A DNA stretch of 64,000 nt from Escherichia phage HMD-6, in sequence record PQ505080.1; one strand, written 5' to 3'. The notes beneath the pieces were generated by a model. The model was not told the DNA's origin and did not search any database. It was given only the letters and a program-made list of their open reading frames with translations. Positions 22,416-23,536 of the stretch are shown piece by piece (the stretch's first letter is position 1; every line of letters begins with the position of its first letter). Made by a program: the position numbers and the translations under genes.

Positions 22416-23177
22416 TTACAGTTCCATAAAGTTTTCTACGATGTCAATGAATGTTTTATCAGAGAAAGCGTCAACCGCCCCGTTAAACCAAACTGGGATG
22501 CCGCGATCCTCATACTGGTAAATGTCACTACGTGAAATGCCATTCTCCCCTAAATGCTGTGAGTCGTATTTGTTAACGATCAGTAGTTTAGTCCCCTTAT
22601 TACAGGCAGGGAATAGCTCCCAGTTAAAATTGATAACTGTGTTGGAGCACCCTACAAGGATAACCATATCATTGCTCGTCAGAGAAGTCAACAGGTCATA
22701 CATGTCTACATACTTTGGAGCTACTTCTCCGAAGAACACTACATTAGGCTTGACCCAAGTATACTCGCTTGCATCTACCTCAGAGTATCCAATGTCTTTA
22801 ATGACGTCATTCCCTTCATCATCCTCGTAGACTATTTCTGGCAAATATCCGTGGACATGTAAAATATCTTCATGTTTTACACCAGCACGCTCCAGCAAAT
22901 CATCTACATTGGTGGTCAGGTTGATCACACGACCAGACCAGCGGGAATACCACTCAGCGATCCGGAGATGTGCAAGGTTAGGATCAACACTGCCCAGAGC
23001 TACACGTCGTGCATTATAAAAGTCATGCACCTTATAGTAGTTCTTGGCAAAGGTGTGGATGTTACACACCTCATCGATGCTGAAATTCTCCCACATTGCA
23101 GTGCTACCAGATCGGAAAGTGGGGATACCAGATTCAGCGCTCAAACCAGCACCGGAGATAATGATCAGTCGTCGCAT
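22416..23177 (-). CDS. Sir2-family NAD-dependent enzyme (Zn-ribbon-less)
   Basis: Sirtuin motifs GAGLSAESGIPTFR, TTNVDDL, HVHG; no CxxC...CxxC zinc module visible. Confidence 0.7.
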   Translation of the reverse strand: MRRLIIISGAGLSAESGIPTFRSGSTAMWENFSIDEVCNIHTFAKNYYKVHDFYNARRVALGSVDPNLAHLRIAEWYSRWSGRVINLTTNVDDLLERAGVKHEDILHVHGYLPEIVYEDDEGNDVIKDIGYSEVDASEYTWVKPNVVFFGEVAPKYVDMYDLLTSLTSNDMVILVGCSNTVINFNWELFPACNKGTKLLIVNKYDSQHLGENGISRSDIYQYEDRGIPVWFNGAVDAFSDKTFIDIVENFMEL

Positions 23178-23185
23178 AAGTGTCC

Positions 23186-23536
23186 TCAGTAGATGTTTTG
23201 TTTAATCTCTATTCCAAACTTTTTAAACGAGTCAGCAGCAAGCATGAATTTACGAGCCGCTGATGGGTTAGAAGTATGCACGAAAATCTTCACGTTGTCA
23301 ACTACAGGAGGCTTACCAAATACAAATTTTTCCTCCAGCATAGACAGGCAATCGTACCCTTCAAATACCTCTCCAAGATCGTTGTCCATGTGCCACTCAG
23401 AAACGCGCCTGTAGAGCTTTCCCTTATCGTTAATAAAATCCATAAACTCAGAGGAATTCTTTAGCCAAAGAGCATCTGGGAGCCCATAATTTGACGGATC
23501 TCTCAAGTCATCCAGCCACACAATCAACTTCTTCAT
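23186..23536 (-). CDS. hypothetical protein (possible receiver-like small domain)
   Basis: 116 aa; N-terminal KKLIVWLDD strand-acidic motif and HMDNDLG; co-operonic with RNA ligase and Sir2. Confidence 0.3.
   Translation of the reverse strand: MKKLIVWLDDLRDPSNYGLPDALWLKNSSEFMDFINDKGKLYRRVSEWHMDNDLGEVFEGYDCLSMLEEKFVFGKPPVVDNVKIFVHTSNPSAARKFMLAADSFKKFGIEIKQNIY

Follow-up and report, generated by a model that had tools for sequence, protein, structure and literature searches.

The closest described counterpart of the locus examined here is the type 2 sirtuin-centered RNA-repair neighborhood of Iyer, Burroughs, Anantharaman and Aravind (Viruses 2022, PMC9503650, section 3.7.3), whose prototypes are Escherichia phage V5 and Proteus phage Mydo. 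As set out in that section, the neighborhood comprises a T4-like RNA ligase, the protein cREC, a nucleotide kinase, a MazG pyrophosphatase, an 'occasional' calcineurin-like phosphoesterase and a sirtuin of a distinct clade, and the phage sirtuin is predicted to act on RNA 2'-phosphates in the manner of KptA/Tpt1. cREC (cyclic-phosphate-processing receiver) was named, and predicted to process cyclic phosphates, by Iyer, Anantharaman, Krishnan, Burroughs and Aravind (Viruses 2021, PMC7824862); passages in both papers also weigh it as an enzyme processing 1''-2'' cyclic ADP-ribose (ADPr), and the 2022 section describes it as remaining uncharacterized. Here we analyze a sirtuin gene and the adjoining cREC gene in 64,000 nt of Escherichia phage HMD-6 (PQ505080.1), a stretch that we call the window and whose coordinates are used throughout. 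All six components of the type 2 neighborhood lie within window positions 21688-25541 (Table 1), and the gene content is the same as in the V5/Mydo type, with nothing differing. Sequence comparison identifies the locus as this published neighborhood, already known as a comparative-genomic prediction. Beyond what section 3.7.3 sets out, our analysis finds the class III origin of the sirtuin, its CobB-like pocket with a Y-x-x-R pair, the loss of its zinc ligands with the hairpin kept, its acidity, the terminator-bounded transcription unit, and a version of the cluster without a sirtuin in phi92-type phages.

We are highly confident of the identity and genomic context of the locus taken alone; the identities of the components, their folds and conserved residues, the operon structure and the recurrence of the neighborhood are established. 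Escherichia phages VB-EcoM-WM and FV3 match the 2.9-kb stretch around the sirtuin and cREC genes at 98.1-98.6% identity, and 120 phage records, almost all of rV5-like Vequintavirinae, carry it with a DNA identity of 90-99%; conservation across so many records means that the locus is not a chance assembly. Its 98% identity to FV3 identifies the phage as a Vequintavirus of the rV5/FV3 type. The FV3 RefSeq record has on one strand RNA ligase 1, a hypothetical gene, Sir2, a nucleotide pyrophosphohydrolase, two further hypotheticals and an ATP-dependent DNA ligase, and on the opposite strand an ATPase and a phosphoesterase, with a tRNA cluster a few kb on; the gene layout of the window is that of FV3.

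Four genes on the minus strand, for an Rnl1-type RNA ligase, cREC, Sir2 and a MazG/HisE-like protein, are tightly packed: there is a 4-bp overlap between the ligase and cREC genes, and the gaps between cREC and Sir2 and between Sir2 and the MazG-like gene are 8 bp and 14 bp. A terminator-like hairpin closes the unit, and phage Gotham carries its depositors' own ARNold terminator at the homologous place. Promoter-like hexamers occur on both strands of the divergent intergenic region upstream, where the sign of the GC skew also switches, and in Gotham the homologous site carries an annotated PhagePromoter prediction. From the gene spacing, the hairpin and the Gotham terminator we take these genes to be a four-gene unit with its own terminator, starting at the divergent intergenic region; the DNA ligase gene and two small open reading frames (ORFs) lie beyond the terminator. 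The original prediction, made from the letters of the DNA, had placed a Sir2 enzyme and a small 116-aa protein in one operon with the RNA ligase and the MazG-like gene; both ORFs exist on the minus strand with the motifs it quoted, and the operon holds.

The sirtuin matches the Pfam family PF02146 at 95.2 bits (cut-off 24; E 6e-27) over profile positions 1-178 of 180, and phrog_2162 with an E-value of 3e-108; SIR2 is its sole Pfam match at E <= 0.01. Its motifs begin at residues 9 (GAGLSAESGIPTFR), 89 (TNVDD) and 107 (HVHG). We aligned 40 homologues (50-96% identity) as a sample of the clade, members of which occur in 1006 phage records. Residues G9-A10-G11, S16, F21-R22, N90, D92 and H109 are invariant or at least 90% conserved in this alignment and align with their CobB equivalents, so that the retention of NAD-binding and catalytic motifs claimed in the original prediction is upheld for the whole clade.

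By sequence the nearest solved proteins are CobB (1S5P, phmmer E 2e-21), SIRT5 and Archaeoglobus Sir2-Af1. The same three were closest when an AlphaFold (AF2) model of the sirtuin (pLDDT 90.3) was compared by Foldseek (E 4e-18, TM 0.73-0.84), and every one of the 50 PDB matches listed was CobB, SIRT5, SIRT2 or Af1, with no defense SIR2 structure among them. Sequence and modeled fold both indicate that the protein is nearest to the class III lysine deacylases (CobB/SIRT5) and not to defense NADases. With CobB and SIRT5 (1S5P, 6RXJ, 3RIY) it shares the Rossmann plus small-domain fold, the GAGxSxxSGIxxFR and NxD motifs, the catalytic His, FYNARR, the acyl pocket and the FGE loop, the last kept across the clade. 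FYNARR is identical to that of CobB (Y92/R95), and the corresponding anion pair, Y54-x-x-R57, is invariant across the 40 clade members. The SIRT5 counterparts, Y102 and R105, bind the carboxylate of succinyl-lysine. A phosphate-binding role for this Tyr/Arg anion site is plausible. Spinck et al. (bioRxiv 10.1101/723684) randomized the CobB acyl-pocket residues A76, Y92, R95, I131 and V187, and we used the same five to set the offset between 1S5P and CobB numbering. They map to C38, Y54, R57, V91 and V146 of the phage protein, all invariant or nearly so in the clade; the five are kept or conservatively changed and the pocket is essentially conserved.

Against this background the clade departs from CobB and SIRT5 in several respects. 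The phage sirtuin has three Cys in total (38, 177 and 192), all of them outside the stretch that runs from the catalytic His109 to FFGE148-151. When aligned with CobB by HMMER, this zinc segment is of equal length, and C155, C174, C176 and C177, which we take to be the CobB zinc ligands, face Y117, V134, A136 and S137. Across the 40 clade members this segment holds at most two Cys each, none of them conserved, and the phage protein lacks the classical Cys4 (or Cys3) zinc site of sirtuin deacylases. The beta-hairpin of the small module (residues 110-128) is still predicted in the AlphaFold model, so the protein is, on that model, better described as without zinc ligands than as without a ribbon, since the module is not deleted. 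The Gln of CobB QNxD is an invariant Thr in the clade, and the VYP that follows the GxS strand in CobB is V-I-N-F here (V-I-x-F, invariant, in the clade); the VYP loop lines the peptide cleft in sirtuins. A C-terminal insert at about residues 203-220, of low pLDDT, sets the phage protein further apart, as do an identity of only about 25-27% over the structure and a genomic context of RNA-end processing. All NCBIfam CobB equivalogs are missed: the best score is 121 bits against a cut-off of 243, NF040867 gives 102 against 320, NF001753 was also tested, and no score exceeds half of its cut-off. Members of the clade are strongly acidic, with pI values of 4.6-5.8 and a net charge near -13.

These results bear directly on how the protein had first been read. 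The term 'Zn-ribbon-less' was right for the four Cys ligands, which are lost clade-wide, and less apt for the ribbon itself. The suggested likeness to Sir2 domains acting as NADases or ADP-ribosyltransferases does not hold in view of the nearest relatives (CobB, SIRT5 and Af1) and the retained acyl pocket, and the NADase link is unsupported. Lack of a zinc site is by itself no diagnostic feature. The structure prediction and Foldseek comparison that the original prediction had proposed as its check return class III deacylase sirtuins. With the defense SIR2 NADases (ThsA, DSR1/2, SIR2-HerA, SIR2-pAgo) the phage protein shares the SIR2 superfamily and the lack of a canonical Cys4 zinc module; it differs in being single-domain and phage-encoded, in having no sensor partner and in keeping the acyl-lysine pocket. 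A PADLOC scan at E <= 0.01 gave no match for the sirtuin, cREC or the MazG-like protein. Given that scan and the Foldseek listing of only deacylase sirtuins, we rejected a defense-type NADase as the family of the sirtuin. Overall, the observation behind the original prediction is confirmed and its interpretation partly supported.

The description of the 116-aa protein as receiver-like proved apt: it matches PF20274 (cREC_REC) at 53.3 bits (cut-off 27; E 4.5e-14), a domain present in 53 of the 54 cREC homologues found. The motifs WLDD and DNDLG start at residues 7 and 51; the conserved residues lie where beta1 (D9 and D10), beta3 (D51-N-D53-L-G) and beta4 (H87-T-S-N-P) end. The fold is receiver-like, with conserved Asp at the REC active-site positions. 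Compared with the REC domains of response regulators, cREC has no output domain, carries invariant FDNDLG and VHTSNP motifs, and occurs in other phages as a fusion with Nudix; a phosphoesterase activity is predicted for it. Its neighbors here and at 12 further loci are RNA ligase, kinase, phosphoesterase, sirtuin and MazG-like genes. No histidine kinase was found among the neighbor genes examined, the window as a whole not having been scanned for one. Searches by sequence found no homologue of solved structure, a match to acyl carrier protein being spurious or marginal, and a scan of bacterial and archaeal genomes for the cREC subfamily of the window gave only two matches, a 354-bp contig and one metagenome-assembled genome. 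Pyrophosphatases recur beside cREC, as a Nudix fusion, as MazG-like neighbors, and as a MazG-domain neighbor of a cREC 31% identical to that of the window (locus L083). The last is among five distant cREC loci (L082-L086), where nine of the ten neighbor proteins scanned had no Pfam match and the tenth was the MazG-domain protein.

We surveyed 63 IMG/VR loci and several GenBank loci with the sirtuin clade, using a cREC profile and the proteins of the window to search their six-frame ORFs. Sixteen loci are of rV5/Mydo type. In these the sirtuin occurs with a MazG-like gene and a DNA ligase, the RNA ligase, kinase and phosphoesterase are present too (bar two incomplete loci), and cREC was detected in 11; in Mydo-type phages the sirtuin gene abuts the DNA ligase gene. 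Homologues of two small conserved ORFs of the window are also found near the cluster in Mydo-type loci. T5-type loci have, directly downstream of the sirtuin, a protein of PF18143 (HAD_SAK_2, 'Swiss Army Knife RNA repair'; E 4e-20), while Serratia jumbo phage BF has an island of NMNAT-Nudix, NAMPT, 2H phosphoesterase, sirtuin and a Nudt16-like Nudix-cREC fusion. The rV5/Mydo, T5 and jumbo architectures agree with the three types described in section 3.7.3 of PMC9503650. Across the survey the most constant partner of cREC is a pyrophosphatase, and that of the sirtuin some phosphoesterase.

The survey also turned up variants of these neighborhoods. In T5 (L002:9661-10482) the sirtuin and HAD_SAK_2 phosphatase are followed by two tandem DUF7415 proteins (E about 1e-30 each), a pair kept with the sirtuin in about 30 T5-like loci. 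The BF gene annotated 'RNA ligase' (L068:5281-5727) is the 2H phosphoesterase, with a Pfam match to Acb1 (anti-CBASS protein 1) at E 4e-15. Three relatives of about 147 kb (L052:9079-9564, plus strand; L049; L057) have a 161-aa phrog_652 protein in the cREC slot, within the interval between kinase and sirtuin. It has no Pfam or PDB sequence match and may be a non-orthologous replacement of cREC; a guess from its motifs that it is a NADAR protein was withdrawn, as Pfam, PHROGs and PDB gave no support. Just upstream of the cluster, and divergent from it, Mydo- and phi92-type phages carry a NAMPT-like and Prs-like pair (L004:1-2464, L072-L076, L079-L081) that looks like the NARP1 NAD+ reconstitution genes (Adps/Namat).

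How might such a set of enzymes work together? Following Iyer et al. (2022), we tentatively favor, as the likeliest of the roles considered, one in RNA repair in which the sirtuin stands in for Tpt1 and the MazG-like protein and cREC work alongside it. Ribotoxins or anticodon nucleases of the host would cut tRNA or other RNA to leave 2',3'-cyclic-phosphate and 5'-OH ends; the kinase would phosphorylate the 5' end, cREC or the metallophosphoesterase would open the cyclic phosphate, and the RNA ligase would seal the break. Where a 2'-phosphate is left, the sirtuin would take NAD+ as its acceptor, like Tpt1/KptA: the 2'-phosphate oxygen would attack C1'' of the nicotinamide ribose in the sirtuin site and nicotinamide would leave. 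cREC, through its Asp pair and D-x-D, would then open the cyclic phosphate of the sirtuin by-product, and the MazG-like enzyme (Nudix in jumbo phages) would split the pyrophosphate to give mononucleotides. The substrate of the sirtuin, the activity of cREC and the order of the steps are what we infer. In keeping with sirtuin chemistry, every residue required to cleave NAD+ and to activate the 2''-OH is invariant or nearly so across the 40 clade members, and the Tyr-x-x-Arg anion site is invariant too.

Sirtuins act on acyl-lysine by a two-step reaction, and this is the basis of the parallel with Tpt1. The two chemistries are formally alike, with attack at C1'', release of nicotinamide and then attack by the 2''-OH (the Tpt1 mechanism is described in PMC11417386). 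Shared with the Tpt1/KptA of fungal and plant tRNA splicing would also be the proposed role, NAD+-dependent removal of a 2'-phosphate after healing and sealing, and the association with cyclic-phosphodiesterase and ADPr-phosphate-processing partners. The differences are an unrelated fold with no sequence similarity, the acidity of the phage sirtuin, and the standing of its activity of this kind as a prediction only. We found no homology to KptA (ART-fold) in the sirtuin, which matches only SIR2 in Pfam and has a predicted Rossmann-type sirtuin fold; any resemblance to Tpt1/KptA would be functional only.

In favor of the Tpt1-like role, the genes form a tight unit closed by a terminator, the same gene set recurs in rV5/Mydo-type loci, cREC is linked to pyrophosphatases, T5 and BF pair the clade with other phosphate-end or ADPr enzymes, and the sirtuin departs from bona fide CobB in its sub-cut-off scores, lost zinc ligands, Gln-to-Thr change and altered VYP loop. 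Several points weigh on the other side. Kinase, metallophosphoesterase and ligase could carry out a T4-style repair from which no 2'-phosphate remains, so that an analogue of Tpt1 would not be needed, and a need for, or tolerance of, a 2'-phosphate by the ligase is unsupported. The conserved CobB acyl-lysine pocket fits a protein deacylase as well, and the strong acidity of the clade is unusual for an RNA-binding enzyme. Much of the conservation of the neighborhood in phages of the rV5, Mydo and phi92 types may come from common descent instead of selection. The sirtuin is moreover separable from the ligase cluster: in phi92-type contigs (L079/L080 compared with L035/L038) the cluster of cREC, phosphoesterase, RNA ligase, kinase, DNA ligase and MazG-like genes is intact without it, and the sirtuin lies about 32 kb away, adjoining phrog_9509 and phrog_8514 proteins. 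Finally, the literature searched yielded no experimental test of the phage sirtuin clade or of any cREC.

Two other roles, as a deacylase and in soluble ADPr metabolism, are serious rivals. The sirtuin could be an ordinary NAD+-dependent lysine deacylase of CobB/SIRT5 type, of proteobacterial host origin, that has been adapted to keep host or phage proteins de-acylated and does not act directly on RNA; we regard this as rather unlikely overall. Its closest solved relatives by sequence and fold all argue for it, as do the FYNARR identical to CobB, the invariant or nearly invariant acyl-pocket residues and the FGE loop, and the abutting sirtuin and DNA ligase genes of Mydo-type phages; basic substrates rich in lysine would suit an acidic protein. 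Speculatively, one possible target is the catalytic lysines in the RNA and DNA ligases encoded nearby. Opposed to the deacylase role are the scores far under the NCBIfam equivalog cut-offs, the clade-wide loss of zinc ligands, and the changes at QNxD and VYP; the host, furthermore, already supplies CobB, and three gene architectures pair the clade with phosphate-end or ADPr enzymes, not with acyltransferases. Nearer to the view of the original prediction is a soluble NAD+/ADPr metabolite module, in which the sirtuin, cREC and pyrophosphatase make or destroy small NAD-derived molecules (ADPr-phosphates, cyclic ADPr-type signals) or channel NAD+ breakdown products in counter-defense, with neither RNA nor protein as substrate. 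We see only a small chance of this. The BF sirtuin does sit in an NAD island, with an Acb1-matching 2H protein and no true RNA ligase or kinase among its annotated neighbors, and Mydo- and phi92-type relatives have the NARP1-looking NAMPT and Prs-like pair upstream of their cluster. The repeated tie of cREC to pyrophosphatases, the cyclic ADPr role that Iyer et al. also considered for it, and the acidity of the sirtuin, cREC and MazG-like proteins alike, as for small-molecule enzymes, point the same way. The fold and pocket, however, are those of acyl-lysine sirtuins, with no similarity to defense-type SIR2 NADases in PADLOC, and the immediate neighbors are a ligase and a kinase; a tblastn search of the 64-kb window with the relatives' proteins found no NAMPT, Prs-like, NMNAT, 2H, Nudix or Nudix-cREC gene, and plain NAD+ hydrolysis would harm the phage. 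Nor do two reports on phage NAD+ reconstitution implicate this sirtuin: an aRES/NARP1 preprint concerns a Macro-domain ADPR-1P phosphatase and the NARP3 paper a PnuC-like transporter with a NadR-like enzyme.

Very unlikely, in our judgment, is a nucleic-acid end ADP-ribosyltransferase, which would place an ADP-ribose cap or mark on the terminal phosphate of RNA or DNA, with cREC and the pyrophosphatase removing or trimming it. Tpt1 has a side activity of this kind, the transfer of ADP-ribose onto 5'-phosphates, and the genomic context, NAD+-cleaving residues and anion pocket fit end modification as they fit the Tpt1-like role. The acidic surface counts against it, and the window has no Macro, NADAR or ARH gene for reversal of the mark.

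The boldest form of the Tpt1-like proposal is that this is the first sirtuin with RNA as its physiological substrate, an NAD+-dependent 2'-phosphotransferase that replaces Tpt1/KptA non-orthologously, holds the phosphate in the Tyr-x-x-Arg pocket and, with the MazG-like pyrophosphatase, makes up a pathway of the yeast tRNA-splicing type from unrelated folds. We think this doubtful. The idea of an RNA-directed sirtuin is already in print; a demonstration and the structural rationale would be new. Were the prediction true, nucleic-acid phosphates would join acyl-lysine as targets of sirtuin chemistry, receiver domains would act as enzymes beyond two-component signaling, and phages would have rebuilt a eukaryote-style NAD+-dependent tRNA repair against host ribotoxins. 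The host-takeover or counter-defense unit first suggested for these genes stands only in broad outline, as a cluster for RNA break repair such as phages deploy to counter the tRNA nucleases of their hosts, for which section 3.7.3 of PMC9503650 proposes a step that consumes NAD; the divergent kinase and phosphoesterase, and that prior publication, had been missed. About 1000 sequenced phages carry a member of the clade, among them T5 and many phages of E. coli, Salmonella and Klebsiella that are candidates for therapy, and its usual annotations, 'NAD-dependent deacetylase' or 'Sir2-like protein', may be wrong. A plain deacylase or an NAD-metabolite enzyme would still be relevant to the NAD+-centered arms race between phages and bacteria.

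Table 1. Features of the sirtuin/cREC locus and its surroundings in the 64,000-nt window of phage HMD-6.
Feature	Position	Strand	Match or description
ATP-dependent DNA ligase, 427 aa	19776..21059	-	PF01068, PF14743
Two small conserved ORFs, 102 aa (21315-21623) and 89 aa (21059-21328)	21059..21623	-	phrog_7684, phrog_14585
Intrinsic-terminator-like hairpin	21663..21681	-	8 pairs, 6 G-C, T-rich tail; 3' of the MazG-like stop
Probable MazG/HisE-like all-alpha nucleotide pyrophosphohydrolase with C-terminal extension, 237 aa	21688..22401	-	phrog_671 (E 5e-22)
Sirtuin of CobB/SIRT5-like (class III) origin, zinc-ligand Cys lost, 253 aa	22416..23177	-	PF02146, phrog_2162, CobB (phmmer)
cREC protein, 116 aa	23186..23536	-	PF20274
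Rnl1-family ATP-dependent RNA ligase, 311 aa	23533..24468	-	PF09511, phrog_562
Divergent intergenic region, 100 bp	24469..24568	.	Between the ligase operon and the kinase/phosphoesterase pair
P-loop kinase (GLPGSGKST), polynucleotide-5'-kinase-like, 136 aa	24569..24979	+	PF13671, phrog_2071, phrog_505
Calcineurin-like metallophosphoesterase, 184 aa	24987..25541	+	phrog_547 (E 1e-51)
tRNA cluster: Arg-TCT, Tyr-GTA, Ser-TGA, odd 99-nt tRNA-like, Thr-TGT, Met-CAT, Pro-TGG	28477..29289	+	ARAGORN, Rfam

The genes around the sirtuin and cREC are of recognizable families. The RNA ligase matches PF09511 at 54.8 bits (cut-off 28.3; E 1.5e-14) and phrog_562 with E 6e-66, and has motifs I (K96-K-N-G), IV (E223-G-Y-M-I-R) and V (K239-I-K). 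Its motif I is K-x-N-G, as in Trl1, not K-x-D-G, a likeness that is not diagnostic. Against the T4 RnlA equivalog TIGR02308 it scores 38 bits where the cut-off is 242, and phmmer gave no PDB match; by sequence it is shorter than T4 RnlA and divergent from it. The window MazG-like protein itself matches PF01503 (PRA-PH) weakly (E 0.083, under the cut-off), whereas all ten family members examined match PRA-PH (best 5e-6) and seven of them MazG (best 6e-5). In their alignment E52, E53, E56 and D76 are invariant and E73 is at least 90% conserved, forming EExxE and ExxD motifs; a profile search of PDB gave no sequence match beyond a 35-residue HisE stretch (E 0.15). The assignment of this protein as a MazG/HisE-like pyrophosphohydrolase is probable.

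On the opposite strand, the kinase matches PF13671 (AAA_33; E 1e-10, on the longer enclosing ORF 24512-24979) and the 'polynucleotide kinase' families phrog_2071 and phrog_505 (E 3e-10); its homologue in Gotham is annotated 3'-phosphatase/5'-polynucleotide kinase, and a sequence search of PDB gave nothing for it beyond the spurious or marginal. The kinase also gave weak PADLOC matches to AAA modules fused to CARF/Csx3 (PDLC01900, E 3e-7; Csx3-AAA, E 7e-3), which hints at a kinase module common to phage RNA repair and CRISPR-associated ring-nuclease proteins. The metallophosphoesterase, a candidate for end-healing of 2',3'-cyclic or 3'-phosphates, matches PF12850/PF00149 (E about 1e-7, on the longer enclosing ORF 24882-25541) and Aquifex aq_1665 (1XM7; E 2e-10). 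Kinase, phosphoesterase and ligase are the three activities of T4- or Pnkp-type RNA break repair (T4 Pnkp/Rnl1, bacterial Pnkp/Hen1). Like T4 with its anti-PrrC Pnkp and Rnl1, and like bacterial Pnkp/Hen1, the locus combines a 5'-kinase, a phosphoesterase and an Rnl1-family ligase, phage-encoded beside the phage's own tRNA genes. Unlike T4 Pnkp, the kinase and phosphatase are separate small proteins here, and the phosphatase belongs, like that of Clostridium Pnkp, to the calcineurin-like type and not to HAD; the similarity of the ligase to T4 RnlA is low, and the sirtuin, cREC and MazG-like protein have no T4 counterpart.

The DNA ligase, downstream of the terminator and probably a separate unit, is syntenic with the cluster in rV5-, Mydo- and phi92-type phages. 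Directly downstream of it is a 254-aa HNH_3 endonuclease ORF (18906-19670, minus strand), probably a homing endonuclease; FV3 has HNH genes in the same region in an arrangement that is not identical.

About 4 kb from the repair genes lies the tRNA cluster, whose products are plausible substrates or beneficiaries of RNA repair, a matter of context only. One member is a 99-nt tRNA-like gene (28946-29044, plus strand) that scores 35.5 bits against the Rfam tRNA model (gathering score 29), with a fold z-score of -3.7 and an extra arm of about 26 nt that forms its own hairpin. In the Rfam alignment its anticodon loop is UUUUUAA (UUU, Lys-type), while ARAGORN gives an undefined 4-base anticodon, and the FV3 annotation has no tRNA in the matching part of the cluster. 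tRNA-Lys(UUU) is the target of PrrC. Standing beside RNA-repair genes, the 99-nt gene may be a variant or decoy tRNA. The tRNA-Ser(TGA) gene (28757-28847, plus strand; ARAGORN; 41.5 bits in the Rfam tRNA clan) is not among the five tRNAs of the FV3 RefSeq record.

Finally, 18-25 GenBank records of 'Campylobacter phage' (C2, C14 and C15 among them), with C. jejuni entered as host, share 92-97% identity with rV5-like phages of E. coli at this locus, which suggests mislabeled hosts or contaminated isolations.

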